Assembly (NCBI GenBank): GCA_000004985.1
Contig: GG738847.1
Source of the DNA: Naegleria gruberi
Taxonomy: Eukaryota
Length of the DNA stretch: 64,000 nt
Reading direction: 5' to 3' (one strand)
Made by a program: the position numbers and the translations under genes. The notes beneath the pieces were generated by a model. The model was not told the DNA's origin and ran no database searches. It saw only the letters and a list, made by a program, of their open reading frames with translations. Shown here one piece after another: positions 3,895 to 15,505 of this stretch (within the stretch, counting starts at the first letter, position 1; each line of letters begins with the position of its first letter).

Positions 3895-6800
3895 ATGTTA
3901 TCGGGATTTAAAACCTCAATAATTCATATCAACATTGTAACATTGTGTTTGTGTAGTATTACTCTTCTCTTCATATCAACTATATCGGGTGTGAGTTGTT
4001 CGTTATCAGAAGAGTTTGTTCCTGCACTAAAAAACCACAATTCAACTTCAATCCTTTATCAAAGCAAGTATGGCCACCTATCGGATAGATGCTACAATCA
4101 GTTCATCAAGAATTTCATATTCAATCAGACGATTCTTTCCTTTGATAGAAGGACTATGATACTTGGATGTTTCTCAGGAACTTTTGCAGAAATGAAATCA
4201 TGCCACGATAGAATGGAAACACAATTCAGAAAGAGTACTTTCAAAGAGTGCTCATATTCAGATCAGTGCTTACTATTTGGTGACAATCCTTCATTGGTTT
4301 TCAAAATGTATTCAGAACGGGCAAGAAGAAGTGGAAAAGATGAATACGCCACCTTACTTGGAACATTTCCTTCAAAATGCTCGCAAACCATTGTTGAATC
4401 ACTAATTGGAAGAGAGGCAATTATATTCTTCTTTAAACAATCAAATGTGAGCGTTGAACTCACAAAAGAGCTTGTAAGGGGGTTCTTTAAGGAAAACCTC
4501 CAAAATCAATGCGGAAATTACACTGAAAATGCTTTAGAAGCATTAAGAATATTTGTACAGGAGATGCCAAAAGGAATGTTCAATTTTCTTTCCTTTTTAG
4601 AGTTTCAAGAAAGGGTCGAAAAGGATACAGTTTCCTTTCGGTTATTGTTTGATTTATCGATACTCATATCTCTTATCATTAGCACTCTTGTCGTAATAAG
4701 CAGAAAATCTAACAATACCAATCCTGTCTCAAACTCCCAGCCACAATCACAGAAAATGTTCCAACTTGTGAAAAATATATTCTTAAAACTGGACAATCAT
4801 AATCAGAACATTTTGCAAGCAGAATCTTTGATTAAAGCTAGAATAGAAAAAAGTGAAAAGCTTAAATTAGCCATCAATGATCAAGAGAATAGAATATCTG
4901 AATTGACCAATAACTTCAATAGGATGCTAAATGGCTCAAAAGCAAAAGATAATACAATCGCTAAAACAATGGAATTACTGAATGAAATCAAAGATGCAAT
5001 TCAATCCGAAAAAGGTAGAGAACCATTAGATGTATTTAATATGCCCTATTATTTGAAGCAATTGTTTAAAGAGAAATCCGAATCTGAAACTGCTTGTAAG
5101 GAGAAGAATGTTAAGGTTCTCGCAGAGAAAAAACAGCTTGAAGCGTTGAACAAGGAACTAAAGGATAGAATTGAGTTTATTGTTTCAGACAATGAGGATT
5201 TAGGATTAAAAGTAGGTCTACTTGAAGAATCATTGGGCAATCAGAAGTCAATTACTCATTCATTGGAAGACTCTGTGCTAAGCCAGTCTGAACAAATAAG
5301 CAAACTTCTTCACTCTTTGAAGATGAAAGAGGATCAGGAACAAAAAGTGGGAACAGAATTGGAAATTTCAAGAAATGACGTGAAGTTATTGGAGAAACAT
5401 CTGAATCAAACCTACTCTTATTTTGGGATTTTAGAAGAGAAGAATCCTGAATCAATACGTTCATTTGTTGAAAGTCTGAGAAATGAATCAGAAATTAAAA
5501 CAAGAGAAATTGAGAAACTCCAGGAACAAATAGCTAACATTGAAGAGATCTCAGACGAAAAAATTGCCAAGATACTAGAAATCGAGTCAAGAGTTACATC
5601 CTTGCAAGATGAAAATAACTCCCTGAGGTCTCAATTGCATATCGCAACAAAGAAGATCGAGTCAAAATATGAGAAAGCTTCCGATAATCATGAAATTCTT
5701 CTAAAAGATCTAGAAACTGTTAAAAGAGACCTCGAGAAAACGAAATTGGAGCTTGCTTAAAAATCAGATTTGCACAATTCTCTCCAGCTGGAAATTCAAC
5801 AAGCAAAAGAACAACAGAGCAGATATCAACAAAAAATTGCAGAAATAACTGAAATATCCGAAAATCATTTAAAAAAGATAGAATCAATTACGGATCAAAA
5901 TGATTTTATGGCAAAAACCATCGAATTGTTAAAAGAAGAATCCAAAGTGGAAGCAATTGGAAACAAGTGTGAACAATTGGAAAAAGACAATGCCCAAACA
6001 CTTATTGATCTGGCAAAAACAAGGTCAGAACTTTCTGCATTTAAACTAAAATATGAAGAGAGATGTAAAGTTTTAAGCAATGAAAGATCAATCATGGAAG
6101 AAAAGGTTAGAGATATTTCCCAAAAATATGAGAAACTGTGTGCAACAGTTTTAGAACGAAAGAAAGTTTTTGAGGAAGCAAAATCAATCATTGAGGAAAA
6201 ATCAAAGAGGGTGGAAGAGCTTTCTGTTATTGTTGAAACATTAAACGAGAGTATGGAGCAGAAGAATTGTGAACTTGTTTTGAAAGAAAAGAATATTGAG
6301 GAGCTAGTAGATATTGTAAACCAAATCAAGTCATGTTTCTCATCTGCACAGATTGAAGGTGACAATTCAATTACTTCTATTGTTAAAGAAATGATGGAAA
6401 AGCAACGAGAAACTGTAAATTGTTTGGAAGTGGAGGTAGAAGGGTTGAGAGGAACTCTGAGTAGTAAATCACAGATATTTGTTGATTATCAATACAAGAT
6501 TGATGAAATAACAGAAATATTAGAAGTTAGGTCAAAGAGAATAGATGAGTTAGATATTGAACTACAATTTCTTAAGAAGGAAAAAAGTAATTTAGAAAAT
6601 GAAATTATTGAGCTAAAGAAATTAATGGAAGAAAAGGAGGTAAAGTTGAAGGAACTAGCAGTTAGTTTGAAAAAGCTCGCTTTAGAAAAGCTTAGCAGTG
6701 AAACTTGTCTGAATGATGAAATAGAGAGTCTTTCTAATGAAAACCTATTGATGAAAGAGAAAATAGATAAGATGAATGAAGCCCTGTCAAAGAAAGTTAA

Positions 6801-7080
6801 CAAAATTGATGATGCCTATAACTATATTGAAGTTCTCAACTCTGAAAGTGAGAACCTGTGTTCTTTGAATAAGGCAATGGAAGATAAATATCTGAAAGTT
6901 CTATTTGAAAAGAAACAATTCAATGAACAAAAGGACAAGTATGAAAGAATTATCGAAGCATTAAAATCACAAAACGAAAAATTACTTGATGAATTGAACA
7001 ATCAACAAATGATCCTACTCAAAATGGAAAAATCAAATAAGAATGCATTCGAAAAGGAATCCAAAAACCAAACAAAATAA
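3895..7080 (+). CDS. Large coiled-coil protein with an N-terminal signal/TM segment, a Cys-rich region and a second TM. Two ORFs (3895..5760 and 5770..7080) lie in the same frame and are separated only by an in-frame TAA at 5758-5760.
   Basis: ATG at 3895. The hydrophobic N-terminus is MLSGFKTSIIHINIVTLCLCSITLLF and a TM lies at LLFDLSILISLIISTLVVI. The heptad-rich E/K/L sequence continues unchanged across the TAA (…KLELA*KSDLHNSLQLEIQQAKEQ…). Both ORFs have the same frame (coordinates ≡1 mod 3). No GT..AG spans the stop. Confidence 0.5.
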
Positions 7081-7180: not shown

Positions 7181-9260
7181 TTAATAATAATCATGATAAT
7201 CTCTAATTTGACCATTCCAAAAAGAGCACAAATCTCTAAAATCCTCTTGAGTGGCAAACATCTGAGCTCCCCTAAATCCCTCGTTCGAATCAGTAGAATG
7301 AACAATAGTTACATTCGGTAAAATTTTAGAAACTTCTTCAGCCCATCCATTTTCTGATCCTACCAATATTACATTTTTTACCTGTTCAATAACATCCATC
7401 CTCTTGGCCCTCAATACTTCTTTTAATCCTTTTTTGAACTCCTTTTCTATTGTCCTGTTTGAATCCACTTCATAAATGTCTCCAGCAAATGAGAAGAAAT
7501 TCAAAACCACACTGATGGTAATTGTGTTTACATCCTTCTCTATTACTATACAATGACTAATACTGTGATAGTATGCTATCATAGTATGTCTTGAAAGTAA
7601 ACAAACTGCAGGAACTTGCGTTTTCAATACCAAATCAATAAAATTGCTCAATTTTTTCATTTTCAGATATTTTGGAGGGATTGAGATTAATAATGGATGG
7701 CTTGGTGTGAAATTAATTTCTTCACAAACTTTGGAGAAAAATGTTCCAATGTTCATGGCTGTTACACGATAATCTTCTGCAGTTAAATAATCAAATACAT
7801 TTCTCTGGTCAGAACCCCTTCTACCAAGCATGGCATCTGAATAGCTGTAAAAGTTAAAGCTATTAAGGTATTGAGATATTGAGAAATTTCAACTCGTATA
7901 ATACTTACTGGCCTCCTGTATATCTACCCACATAGGGCTCAGTCGTTTTTGGAGTTTCATCACTGAAAAATCCAAAAGTTGCAACCTCACTGGTTATATC
8001 AATACAGATAGGTTTAAAATTGCGTTCAGTGAAATTTCTAACTCTAGCAGCATGATACCAATCTGTGAGTGGTTCTTTTTCACATAATTTAAGATAGGTA
8101 TTTCCATTCCAATATTTCTTGTACACTGCTTTCCATAAAATGGGCGATCTTGCAAGATGATTCAAATATCTACTCAATTGCAAACCAACAGAACATATTT
8201 CACTCTCTGAAAGAAAAGTGAATATGTTTAAAATAATCTCCTCTGGTAGAACTGTCAGATTATCATTCTTGTCGTTTTCAACTGGACCTTCCAATATACA
8301 GTATTGCCTATTTAACAAATATTCAAAGGTTTTACCACTCTTCACAAGCAGCCTCTGCCCAGCAAAATACTTTTCTGAAGATCCATAAACATCCCCACTC
8401 TTTTCAAGAGTTTCACTTTCCTTAAAAGCTTGCCCAATTTGTTGGTAAGTTTCTGATTGTTCAAAATTGTTATCTCTTGGAATTGAATTATTATCCACTC
8501 TGAGATACATAATTTCAGTTCTTAAAATATACTTGATTCCACTAATTACAGAACATCCTTCATGATAAAAATCTTGATTAAATAGAGCCAATTTACCAAC
8601 TGAAGGTTTCAAAGTATGATGAAGGTTGAAAGTATCGTCGTTTGGATCAGAGAAGAATTTGGTTTCTCCACCATTGAAATCCTGATTCAAATAGATCAGT
8701 AATGTGTAAATACTTCTCTCATTTTCACTTCTTCTAAACTGACCGTCGGTATGAATTTTGAAATATTCTCCCTTTTCATACTTGCTAAATCTCATACATT
8801 CATTAACTCCACAAGCTACCCATCTTCCTCTGCTGTCCAACCCATACGGGGCAATTGATTTTCCAATCTGATCTAGATCAATCTTGTTCTTTAGTCTATT
8901 AAATATCAAATCGGCCAACTTGTTATCTGTAACCAGTTCTCTCATGGCATTTCTGTGTTCCTTTGGATATTCATCTTCAAGAGATTGAAAATTGGAACAC
9001 TTTTTAATCAAATCTCTGCATTCATCATCGGAAAAGAAATTCGGAATGACCATCAATCTATTCAATGAATCTTCATAGAAAGGACCGGAAATCTCTAAAG
9101 GCTTCAATTCAAATGACTGTCTATCGTAGGAAAACATTTGCCTGACTTTAATAGAATCATCCGGTTCAATCACTGAATATTTAGATTTAATTCGTTGTTG
9201 TTGGAGATGGTCATTGTTATCATTTCTGGAAGAACTTGAAGCACTGTGTTTATTACCCAT
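7181..9260 (-). CDS. Two-exon gene: complement(join(7181..7844,7909..9260)). N-terminal myristoylation-type motif (MGNKHS), a 2OG-Fe(II) oxygenase domain of prolyl-4-hydroxylase/PKHD type, an F-box, and a C-terminal alpha/beta domain of unknown function.
   Basis: The oxygenase motifs are KIHTDGQF…NGGETKFF…FYHEG (HxD…H). The F-box reads LPEEIILNIFTFLSESEICSVGLQLSRYLNHL. The ORF 7905..9260 would stop at TAA 7905-7907, but that lies inside a GTAAGT…TTTTACAG intron (7845..7908, 64 nt). Splicing gives …RYTGG-H-YSDAMLGRRGS… in frame into ORF 7181..7831. Confidence 0.7.
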
Positions 9261-9660: not shown

Positions 9661-9984
9661 TTATTTAAGATAATCTTCAAAAATAGAATTGAAAATCTCA
9701 TCCTCATTATGAATTGTTTCCGTGACTGAATATTTTACAGGTGATGATGAAAGATCAATTATTGGTGTAATAGTATTACTACTTGATTGATTAGAAGCCA
9801 ATTCTTTTGGATGATGACCACTCTCCAATTCTTCTTTATTTTCCTCCATCAAATATTCTGTAAAATTTGTTGTATGAAAAGGAAAAACACAATTTTCATT
9901 CGGACACATCAGGAATGAGTGTGTCGAGTCGAGATCATATCTAAATTTTCTAAGAGGTTGACCACATTCTCCACAAATTAGCAT
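9661..9984 (-). CDS. Small zinc-ribbon protein (CxxC…CxxxxC), 107 aa, function unknown
   Basis: ATG start MLICGECGQ…MCPNENC. A TATA-like element (TATTTATAAT) lies ~35 bp upstream on the coding strand. Single ORF, acidic C-terminus. Confidence 0.4.
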   Translation of the reverse strand: MLICGECGQPLRKFRYDLDSTHSFLMCPNENCVFPFHTTNFTEYLMEENKEELESGHHPKELASNQSSSNTITPIIDLSSSPVKYSVTETIHNEDEIFNSIFEDYLK

Positions 9985-12522: not shown

Positions 12523-15505
12523 ATGAGCAGTGGTGGTGGACATGTTTCATTCTCTAACCAGCAGCAACCAGCAAATAATCAACATCAGCAACAATATCTT
12601 GCCAACTCCTTTTCGTCAACAATAACACCAAATAATAACAATAACTATGGCAATCAAGGAAATAGAACCATGTTCGGAAATGGATTGAGTGGTGCTGTAT
12701 CAACTTCATCACCAAATGCGTCCAAACCACTTCCTACTCTTCCTCTTTCCCAACAACAACAACAACACACAACAACACATTCCAAATAATAGAGCAAGCA
12801 TGTCCTTCTTCAATCCGCAACCTACCCCTCCTTTTAATCAACAATCAAATATTTTAGATAGTAGTGGTGGTTCTCAATTTCCTCCACCTCTTAAACAACA
12901 ATCATCCCTCAATAACTTAATGTATCAACAACCTGCAAATACTCAGCAACAACAATGGAATAATCAAAATTCTGAAATGTTTTATAGTAATTCTCTAAAT
13001 TCAATGATTAATAATAATTTGAATGATCAACAGTTTGTTCCAGTAACTGCCATGCCTAATTCATCAAATAATTTCAATAACAAAAATGTTCCGAGTGTAG
13101 CCCAAAGTTTTGATTTTTCAGTGGAGAAAAAGAGATCAAAGAGTGTCAGTTTTGGACGATCAAGTCCACTATTATCGGATGAAGAACCAATAGTCAACAC
13201 AAATGAAACACAAACAGCCAAGCCAATTCCTCAAGTAGTTGAACATACCAAAACTGTTTCATTCTTCGAGTCACCTATTTATTCCACTATGGCAGAGGAT
13301 GATATGAGAGACGATGCATTTCCTGCTATTACTTTTGATATTCCTGTACGTTCTGGAGAAACGAGAGATTTTTCAAATGTTTTTGAAAGATGGCAAAATA
13401 TGGGATTGGGAAGTAATGATATGCGTCATTCGTTTGTTGCCACAACATCGAGCCACAACTTTGGATTTGAGGATGATTTTGGTACATCCAACAAACCAAC
13501 TGAATCAATCCTTAACAAGGGTACTGCCAATACTACTGTAATATATCCAAATCCAAATGCACCAACACCATCAGAGCTACAAAGTGATACCAGATCAGAA
13601 TTGTACAATCCAAATGCCATACCAACTCCAATAAGTGCTAATGATGATCAAGATGATGAGGATGAGTCAGAGGAAAACCAACAGGAATCATTTGATATGA
13701 TACAATTAGGACTATTGGATCCAAAAGAGTTAAAAATTCTATGTGAAAATATTTCTTCCATGCTCAACATTCTGTACAAGTATCTGGGAACAATACCAAC
13801 TGAATGTTCACTGGTTTTACTTGAAAAACATTGTGAATCAAACCTTAAAGATTTGAGCAAAATAACAAACAAGCATTCTGTTGAGACCTTGATATCACTA
13901 CTCATTTCCAGGTTAGATCTTCACAAAAATAAGGGATCCCTTTCAAAGTTGACATCTGTAGATTTTCTTGAACAACAAGTTAGAGAAATTGCTAGGACAA
14001 GTTTAATCAATCTCAGAGAAGATATGGAAGGATTTCAGAGAAGCAAAAGATCATCAACACCAAACGATTCAAGTGATGAGGTTAGTGTTGCTTCTAATAA
14101 CGAGCCAGAACTTCCAAATATACCAAGAAAAATGGTGGAGAAGAAGAAATTAATAGACAAGTTACTGAAACAAATCAGCAGTATTAACACACCACTCAAT
14201 GATAATGGAGATACTATCGTACATGCATGTTGTTGGTATGGATTGAAATCTGTTCTGGAATATGCACACAAGGTTAAAGGAGCCCTTTTATCTATCAGAA
14301 ACAAGGATGGAAAACTTCCATTAGAATACGCCATCAATCAACACAGAATTTCATCTACAGTCTACTTGATTGGTAATTCTATTGGCCATTCACTCCATTT
14401 ATTTGCAGATGGAAGACTGAGAGAAACCTTTAACAGAGATTTAATTTTGGAAGGAAAGAAAAAGAACCTTACAAAAGCTCTTCGCCAATGCATTTCTTCA
14501 TCCTCAAGGGTTAAACCAAATGTAAAGGATGAGTATGGTATGACACCTCTTCATTACTCTGTTCTACTGAGGTATGATTCAACTATCAAAAAACTATTAC
14601 AAATGTCCAATATACGAGTGAATGAAAGAGATAAGCTCAAGAGAACATGTCTTCATCTTGCTGCTATTTCCAATAATACTGAGGTGATAGATATGCTTTG
14701 TAAACGTGTTGATATTGATAGATTGGCCAGAGATGATATCGGAGATTCATTCCTTCATACATACATTAGATATATCTATGCTGAAGAAAATGGACCAAAA
14801 TATGAAAATCCAATTTTAGTAATGAACAAAATTCAATCCCAATTCAAGTGGTTCAGAAGCCCTATTGTTGATTGTGGGTTAATTCTTGCTCATGCCGGTT
14901 GTTTAGAAAAACTCAATCATTATCACGACTTTGTGATTTCATGTTGGAATCAAATTGTAAAATATGGATTATCAGATAGTTATATTATTGTAGAAAACAG
15001 TTTATTGGAGGGAATTGTTGACCCAGAAGTTGTAAAAACAGCAATTATTACATCATTTAAACAATTCATCATTCCACCAAAGAGAAATGACAAACGTCCG
15101 CTCAGACTTCAACTTGTGAATGTTGTCCATCAACAAGAGAAACAAAAGAAAGGATTATTCAGCTTTGGAAGAGAAACCAAATCATTATTGGGAATGAAAA
15201 ATAAGGAACAACCACCTGTCAACACACAACCACCACAAAATACTCCTCCTCAAGTCACTCAACAAATTATTGATGTTATGAGCAAAAAGATTTATAATTT
15301 CTCCATGATTGACTTTAAGGATTTACAATATCTTTTCACAGACAATCAAACTCACCCACAAGATTCTTACATTTCATGGATGGTCAACAATCAAAAACAA
15401 ACTCCACTATCATTGGCAATAGTATTAATTAGAGCTCTTGTTAAGGAAAAGAAAGTTCAAGCCAAATCAATTGTTACATTACCAATCAGAGCTTTTAAAA
15501 TTTAA
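12523..15505 (+). CDS. Gln/Asn-rich N-terminal region followed by an ankyrin-repeat protein. ORF 12523..12789 and ORF 12689..15505 overlap in the +1 frame; an alternative ATG lies at 12800.
   Basis: ANK repeats: NGDTIVHACCWYG…DEYGMTPLHYSVLL…RTCLHLAAISNNTEVIDML. The first ORF ends at AAA-TAA-TAG (12784-12792). The second frame is open from 12689. The poly-N/Q composition is shared by both frames. Confidence 0.55.

Follow-up and report, generated by a model that had tools for sequence, protein, structure and literature searches.

Which protein is encoded at positions 7,181 to 9,260 of a 64,000-nucleotide stretch of Naegleria gruberi DNA (contig GG738847.1 of GenBank assembly GCA_000004985.1; the whole stretch is referred to as the window), and what might it do in the cell? 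A first-pass annotation had proposed a single spliced gene in which an oxygenase of the prolyl-4-hydroxylase (P4H) type, dependent on 2-oxoglutarate (2OG) and Fe(II), is joined in one polypeptide to an F-box and to a further domain of about 250 residues described as unknown. In this study we establish the structure of the gene and its three domains, the presence of intact catalytic residues, purifying selection and a wide conservation of the architecture among eukaryotes. The C-terminal domain is a divergent, cut-down actin fold. The reading that we favor, and to which we give about an even chance, is that of an oxygenase docked onto Skp1, with the actin-fold module as its client-binding domain.

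Two reading frames joined by a conserved intron

The gene lies in AT-rich eukaryotic DNA (the window has about 32% G+C), and its layout is the following.

7181..9260, minus strand: whole coding region of the P4H–F-box–actin-like gene, two exons, 671 codons plus stop
7909..9260, minus strand: exon 1 (residues 1–450 and the first two bases of codon 451), equal to the public 451-residue model P0001
7845..7908, minus strand: intron of 64 nucleotides, GTAAGT...TTTTACAG, phase 2, splitting the His451 codon as CA/C; position conserved in an orthologue (L001) and a paralogue (L002)
7181..7844, minus strand: exon 2 (residues 451–671; TAA stop at 7181–7183), supported by tblastn matches and by the ratio of nonsynonymous to synonymous substitution rates (dN/dS)

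An open reading frame (ORF) of 451 codons extends from 9260 to 7905 on the minus strand, and its terminal TAA overlaps a consensus splice donor, CA/GTAAGT. Excision of 64 nucleotides (7908..7845) fuses this ORF in frame with that at 7844..7181 to give a product of 671 residues; the boundaries 9260..7909, 7908..7845 and 7844..7181 are exactly those that had been drawn for the two exons and the intron in the first-pass annotation. Exon 1 matches P0001 of N. gruberi (451 residues, 'P4Hc domain-containing protein') at 100% identity; this public model reads into the TAA belonging to the splice donor. The public model is truncated at the donor site.

Comparative evidence argues strongly that the splice joining both ORFs is real. 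In the orthologue, found on a metagenome contig and 65% identical, an intron of 62 nucleotides interrupts the same codon in the same phase, again splitting a histidine codon, and the frame continues past it to a product of 654 residues. The paralogue, from the same sample as the orthologue, has an intron of 70 nucleotides at the same position and phase, its histidine codon being split likewise. In tblastn searches, the C-termini of contiguous proteins from N. lovaniensis and N. fowleri (743–744 residues) match positions 7208..7741, with E values of 1e-17 and 7e-15. The claim of one spliced gene is thus borne out by the conserved intron together with contiguous full-length homologues. Aligned with the orthologue, exon 2 keeps its frame at 55% amino-acid identity; with synonymous sites close to saturation in this comparison, dN/dS comes to 0.18 in the oxygenase, 0.19 in the F-box, 0.22 in the actin-like domain and 0.27 over all of exon 2, the last value indicating purifying selection on exon 2. 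The third domain starts about 40 residues upstream of the end of exon 1, so that a protein made from exon 1 alone would end in a domain fragment.

Truncation of gene models at this point recurs among the relatives. On the metagenome contigs of the orthologue and the paralogue, gene callers likewise stop the ORF at the donor (equivalent to positions 7905–7910 of the window). The N. gruberi paralogue P0006 (576 residues) ends soon past the equivalent point, and because its terminal residues do not match those of its relatives, it is probably mis-modelled at its end too.

A predicted collagen-type prolyl hydroxylase

The N-terminal half of the protein carries the enzyme domain.

8487..9083, minus strand: P4H-like 2OG/Fe(II) oxygenase domain, residues 60–258 (Pfam PF13640, AlphaFold2 model, Foldseek, sequence profile)
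8532..8753, minus strand: whole set of catalytic residues, invariant in aligned relatives
8751–8753, minus strand: H170
8745–8747, minus strand: D172
8562–8564, minus strand: H233
8532–8534, minus strand: K243

The Pfam family 2OG-FeII_Oxy_3 (PF13640) matches residues 156–245 with an E value of 5.5e-12 and 46.9 bits against a curated cut-off of 27, and it is matched by all 60 relatives analyzed. The P4H-type oxygenase recognized earlier from its HTD...H motif thus passes a profile search, and the motif is made up of H170, D172 and H233. The 2OG-binding lysine is K243, ten residues past H233. None of the four residues varies in the alignments of 7, 8 or 60 relatives. No match to the JmjC or Cupin families of Pfam was found in the window protein.

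A structure of the domain was predicted with AlphaFold2 from the exon-1 product, with eight sequences behind the model, and shows a double-stranded beta-helix with a predicted local distance difference test score (pLDDT) of about 85–95 across residues 25–310. Foldseek places it in the prolyl-hydroxylase structural family (E 1e-9 to 1e-6, 14–23% identity). The matches include hydroxylases of the PiuC/YbiX type (PiuC, E 1e-9), PBCV-1 vCPH, Dictyostelium PhyA (6t8m, E 9e-9), Pseudomonas PPHD, human PHD2, Bacillus anthracis P4H and the N-terminal domain of vaccinia C16 (8ag3). Fold alone cannot separate the subtypes of prolyl hydroxylase; the sequence profile can. The profile of the oxygenase domain matches B. 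anthracis P4H (1.8e-10), Chlamydomonas P4H-1 (1.8e-7), PBCV-1 vCPH (1.9e-5), P4H-TM (4e-5) and P3H1 (6e-4), and the same search aligns K243 with the 2OG-binding lysine of B. anthracis P4H. Among solved structures, the family profile of the oxygenase found no PhyA or PHD2 chain at E≤1. Given the lysine aligned ten residues past the distal histidine, and nearest profile relatives that are collagen-type P4Hs, the oxygenase is assigned on its sequence to the collagen type (P4Hc) with a complete catalytic set, and prolyl hydroxylase activity of the window protein is predicted accordingly from these features.

Pfam additionally reports the family Pox_C4_C10 at residues 114–251 (window 8508–8921), with 31.2 bits against a cut-off of 25, and 19 of the 60 relatives match it. 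The cellular P4H clade seen here may lie near the source of the poxvirus pseudo-oxygenase domain of C16.

Helical linker and F-box

Two conserved segments follow the enzyme domain.

8262..8486, minus strand: conserved helical linker between oxygenase and F-box, residues 259–333 (helices 264–316 in the AlphaFold2 model; own hidden Markov model)
8109..8261, minus strand: F-box, residues 334–384, LPEEIILNIFTFL...LW (Pfam F-box-like)

The linker is helical between residues 264 and 316 in the predicted structure, and a hidden Markov model (HMM) built for it recovers the segment in most members of the family. The adjoining F-box, previously called canonical by inspection, holds up in profile searches: Pfam F-box-like (PF12937) covers residues 337–381 with E 4.5e-9 and 36.4 bits against a curated cut-off of 24.3, and 47 of the 60 relatives match the same family. 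When the whole protein is compared by sequence with solved structures, its best match is the F-box of FBXL5, the Leu338-Pro339 pair and the closing tryptophan included. By analogy of sequence, the F-box should dock the protein onto Skp1 of a Skp1–cullin–F-box (SCF) ubiquitin ligase.

The C-terminal domain is a reduced actin fold

The third domain is of a type that is unusual among F-box proteins.

7184..8027, minus strand: divergent, reduced actin-fold domain resembling actin-related proteins (Arps), residues 412–671, split by the intron (Protein Data Bank profiles and paralogue model)

The presence of a third domain of about 250 residues had been correctly noted; its description as unknown no longer holds, as profile and paralogue-model evidence identifies it as a divergent, cut-down actin fold. 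A C-terminal profile from seven close relatives, searched against the Protein Data Bank, retrieves actins and Arp4 exclusively, at a best E value of 1.1e-8. With 18 more diverse family members in the profile, actin is matched at E 5.8e-41 over actin residues ~4–364. Pfam Actin is matched by 36 of the 60 relatives, best in Physarum (9e-36). The homologous domain of the N. lovaniensis protein P0003 was modelled by AlphaFold2 at a pLDDT of 89 and a predicted template modelling score of 0.89, and the model matches actin, Arp3 and the actin of Arp4–actin modules with E values around 2e-15 and template modelling scores of 0.70–0.76. By eye, the segment ICIDITSEVATFGFF...EPYVGR recalls the phosphate-1 strand of actin, and HPLLISIPP...VPAVCLLSRH recalls the actin segment HPVLLTE...VPAMYVAIQA.

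Mapped onto beta-actin, for which a reference sequence was used for numbering only, the aligned positions comprise 119 of 145 in subdomain 1, 29 of 37 in subdomain 2, about two-thirds of subdomain 3 (71 of 104) and 22 of 89 in subdomain 4. The window domain is therefore not a complete four-subdomain actin fold, subdomain 4 being nearly absent. Its nucleotide site is changed as well, with G13 replaced by T, G15 by E, Q137 by R, D154 by E, G156 by D, H161 by T and G302 by S. Other family members mostly retain D11, G13, G156 and G301–302 and lose the catalytic Q137, D154 and H161; reduction of the actin-like domain goes furthest in the Naegleria subclade of which the window protein is a member. 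From these substitutions and deletions, the module is probably non-polymerising and nucleotide-free. Since subdomain 4 is nearly gone and nucleotide-binding glycines are lost, it would most likely work neither as an ATPase nor in filaments, but offer a protein-binding surface on the subdomain 1/3 face, which it has kept. In actin and the Arps, this face binds partner helices.

A separate observation concerns a family-specific motif of the form G-H-Y-W-S-A-G-S-G, present in many members and represented by GGHYSD in the window protein (GHY at residues 450–452, window 7841–7913). The region aligns with the D-loop and His40 of actin. When the F-box plus actin-like regions of nine members are aligned, the histidine of the motif is invariant; it is this histidine codon that the conserved intron interrupts.

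The N-terminus and predicted location

Ahead of the oxygenase stands a short segment that had been described as a myristoylation-type N-terminus, and it does match the corresponding PROSITE pattern.

9243..9260, minus strand: N-terminal MGNKHS, consensus N-myristoylation site (Gly2; PROSITE PS00008 match)

The window protein shares the sequence MGNK with its orthologue and with two members of the family that are more distant. In the family as a whole, an enrichment of N-myristoylation sites is rejected, with matches in only 7 of 166 sequences. Inspection of the window protein revealed no hydrophobic signal peptide. The protein is predicted to be cytoplasmic and probably N-myristoylated, and a myristoyl anchor is plausible for it.

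A three-domain family of wide distribution

The first-pass annotation had suggested a search of related genomes for the same fusion, and the outcome is an architecture that is widespread, not specific to Naegleria or to amoebozoans. Searched against 1.84 billion representative proteins, the profile from the full-length alignment gave 1,097 matches with E values of 1e-30 or lower. Among the top 150, many extend as a single stretch from the oxygenase through the F-box to the actin-like domain. Per-domain HMMs applied to 153 proteins detected the F-box segment in at least 79 and the actin-like segment in at least 48, counts that are too low because many of the sequences are fragments.

Within the Heterolobosea, N. 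lovaniensis, N. fowleri and Willaertia magna have several paralogues each. Chytrids are represented by Nowakowskiella and Rhizophlyctis rosea, the Amoebozoa by Physarum polycephalum, Stenamoeba, Pyxidicula, Dracoamoeba and Dictyostelium purpureum; further members come from the choanoflagellate Choanoeca flexa, the centrohelid Pterocystis and Ancoracysta twista. Pfam reports all three domains above curated cut-offs in Nowakowskiella and D. purpureum, and all three with one just under its cut-off in Rhizophlyctis, Physarum, Choanoeca and Pterocystis. The architecture as a whole has been kept in Heterolobosea, chytrids, Amoebozoa, a choanoflagellate, a centrohelid and Ancoracysta, and this speaks for joint action of its three modules. 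Some members carry additional modules (WW, ankyrin, TPR, rhodanese, FYVE, Macro, NADAR), the three-domain core being thus reused in larger proteins. An example is P0043 of D. purpureum (2127 residues), which has TPR repeats and weaker matches of lipase-like and STAND-NTPase-like kind.

Outside the oxygenase, no conserved proline was found that could be an auto-substrate, the sole invariant prolines being those common to all actins and that of the F-box Leu-Pro. Database names of the members are hypothetical, 'F-box domain-containing' or 'Fe2OG dioxygenase domain-containing'. Our literature search found no paper describing a P4H–F-box–actin-fold architecture, and the fusion family goes unmentioned in the Dictyostelium actinome paper and in the Skp1-interactome paper.

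Neighbouring reading frames

Four other ORFs of the window were considered.

5770–7080, plus strand: ORF of 436 codons, rich in Glu, Lys and Leu, probably coiled-coil, no Pfam match; converges on the fusion gene
9661–9984, minus strand: upstream ORF of 107 codons, MLICGECGQPL...CPNENC, no Pfam match; CxxC...CxxxxC, small and zinc ribbon-like
12689–15505, plus strand: ankyrin-repeat protein of 938 residues
221–3748, plus strand: large protein of 1175 residues with a weak ARMC5-like armadillo match

The stop codon of the convergent ORF is about 100 nucleotides away from that of the fusion gene. The ORFs for the ankyrin-repeat and the ARMC5-like protein have no evident link to it.

Mechanistic interpretation

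The favored interpretation takes its lead from the order in which the modules are arranged. In KDM2A and KDM2B (FBXL11 and FBXL10), an N-terminal 2OG oxygenase is followed by a central F-box and a C-terminal protein-interaction domain, and because the window protein has the same order of enzyme, F-box and C-terminal interaction domain, we read it as a receptor. The actin-fold module sits where F-box proteins normally have their substrate-binding domain, and there it would hold a client, plausibly a normal binder of actin or Arps. The oxygenase would then hydroxylate the client or a neighbouring component, in dependence on O2 and 2OG, and the F-box would tie the hydroxylation to the SCF ligase, with the effect either of client ubiquitination or of control over the enzyme's own level. 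An SCF receptor with oxygen-dependent chemistry had been the second suggestion of the first-pass annotation, and it appears to be a better reading than its first, the hydroxylation of Skp1.

Several points weigh against this interpretation. The F-box is modelled at low confidence (pLDDT 30–45), as is expected when no Skp1 is present and only eight sequences support the prediction, and the proposed Skp1 binding is derived from sequence profiles. The window protein's own actin-like domain has no Pfam Actin match; its assignment leans on family profiles and on the model of P0003, a paralogue 27–29% identical across the domain. P4H-like domains, moreover, are not always proline hydroxylases. Lastly, the F-box of the Dictyostelium protein JcdI is dispensable for its oxygen phenotype (PMC9485057), and turnover might likewise be the sole role of the F-box in the window protein.

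This last point leads to the alternative of an autonomous enzyme, in which oxygenase and actin-like domain function independently of SCF and the F-box is a degradation handle for the protein's own SCF-dependent turnover. We consider it unlikely, if still worth serious attention. The idea was proposed for JcdI, where the F-box is linked to lower protein levels, and some F-box proteins may bear the box merely for their own turnover (PMC9485057). Against it, F-box and actin-like domain have stayed together in lineages that are very far apart. The order of modules, moreover, is that of a true receptor such as KDM2A/B.

Improbable, in our view, is a hydroxylase directed at Skp1, whereby the F-box tethers the enzyme and Skp1 itself, or the cullin, is hydroxylated as by PhyA in Dictyostelium and Toxoplasma. 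The F-box should indeed position the enzyme beside Skp1, and PhyA is among the fold matches given above. However, the target proline lies in the C-terminal region of Skp1, packed against the bound F-box, and would be hard to reach for an enzyme tethered there. It is established that a cytoplasmic P4H of protists hydroxylates Skp1 at Pro143 (PMC7864055; PMC9485057), but the present domain provides no specific support for the link: its sequence profile groups with collagen-type P4Hs, finding no chain of PhyA or PHD2 at the threshold applied, and its 2OG ligand is Lys243 where PhyA has Arg276 (PMC7864055). The family also occurs in Physarum and D. purpureum, and it was from a Dictyostelium species that PhyA was described. 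Hydroxylation of Skp1 would, in addition, leave the conserved actin-like domain without a role.

Highly improbable is a pseudo-enzyme scaffold that has lost catalysis and serves in binding only, as does the N-terminal domain of vaccinia C16/C4, which resembles PHD2. The score of Pox_C4_C10 above its cut-off, the match to this family in about a third of the relatives and the appearance of the C16 domain among the fold matches all speak for it; the HxD...H...K set, invariant in each of the 60 relatives, and the low dN/dS of the domain present instead the pattern of an active enzyme. Least probable of all are two separate products, with the 451-residue protein of exon 1 as the real one and the downstream ORF belonging to another gene or being non-coding. 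The public annotation does stop at an in-frame TAA, but this overlaps the donor of an intron whose position, phase and split histidine codon are conserved in orthologue and paralogue. Exon 2 is conserved in frame under purifying selection and has its homologue in the C-terminal portion of contiguous proteins from other Naegleria species, and the exon-1 product would end inside the actin-like domain.

Relation to known systems

The nearest experimentally studied analogue of the window protein is JcdI/Fbxo13 of Dictyostelium, an O2-dependent JmjC dioxygenase that binds Skp1 directly via its F-box and whose dependence on O2 is physiological (PMC9485057). In JcdI/Fbxo13, as in the related proteins of protists and plants, a single polypeptide likewise holds both an F-box and a non-haem Fe/2OG dioxygenase; unlike in the family described here, the oxygenase of JcdI is of the JmjC type, the F-box is N-terminal to the enzyme, and an actin-like domain is absent. 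The JmjC–F-box proteins are therefore alike by architecture and are not co-members of the family. KDM2A and KDM2B share the module order; they differ in being JmjC histone demethylases with leucine-rich repeats as their C-terminal domain and with CXXC and PHD fingers, nuclear and bound to chromatin.

For the pairing of F-box and actin fold, the precedent is Arabidopsis ARP8 (Kandasamy et al. 2008, as cited in PMC8066076), which in that citing account has an F-box N-terminal to a divergent actin-family domain. Unlike the window protein, ARP8 has a nucleolar location and no oxygenase domain. A profile of F-box plus actin-like domain, with which kinship to ARP8 or to oxygenase-less F-box–Arp proteins was sought, returned two Naegleria proteins only and is uninformative either way.

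Considering the enzyme part in isolation, no solved structures lie closer by sequence profile than the collagen-type P4Hs (B. anthracis P4H, Chlamydomonas Cr-P4H-1, PBCV-1 vCPH, P4H-TM), matched at E 1.8e-10 to 4e-5. Like the window oxygenase, to which they are only ~20% identical, they have the HxD...H triad and the lysine ten residues past the distal histidine. To our knowledge, these enzymes are free-standing or belong to the endoplasmic reticulum and secretory pathway, and none has an F-box or actin-like domain. PhyA and PHD2 (EGLN) resemble the window protein in fold superfamily, in a cytoplasmic location and in a functional connection to cullin-RING ligases. They differ in using an arginine as 2OG ligand (Arg276 in DdPhyA, PMC7864055), in going undetected by the family profile and in being polypeptides separate from the ligase receptor.

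Implications for the family

A bolder version of the favored Skp1-docked oxygenase, and a rather doubtful one, is a single-polypeptide writer plus ligase receptor that would do the work for which animals use two proteins, PHD and VHL: the actin fold would capture the client, the hydroxylase would mark it according to O2 and 2OG, and the F-box would deliver it to SCF. The client could possibly be a protein that binds actin or Arps, or else actin. For human cells there is a report of actin as a substrate of prolyl hydroxylase (PMC4161513), but recombinant enzymes failed to reproduce the non-HIF (hypoxia-inducible factor) substrates of the PHDs as a class (PMC6739866); actin as a hydroxylation substrate can be taken as a lead only. 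If true, the writer-plus-receptor scheme would represent an unstudied eukaryotic link from oxygen or metabolite sensing to the actin cytoskeleton, and an ancient one, in that the architecture is common to Heterolobosea, Amoebozoa, chytrid fungi, choanoflagellates, centrohelids and Ancoracysta.

On a practical level, the public N. gruberi gene model needs correction. Precedents exist for F-box proteins bearing an oxygenase (KDM2A/B, JcdI) and, in plant ARP8, for one F-box–Arp; no earlier description was found of the combination of a prolyl-hydroxylase-type enzyme with F-box and actin fold. The presence of the family in tractable organisms, among them D. purpureum, probably D. discoideum, Physarum and Naegleria, opens an experimental route. 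Protists, as far as we know, lack the animal HIF system. With catalytic residues intact and conserved across several eukaryotic supergroups, the family is a testable candidate for coupling the availability of oxygen or 2-oxoglutarate to ubiquitin ligase function in protists, and it may also link such sensing to the actin cytoskeleton.

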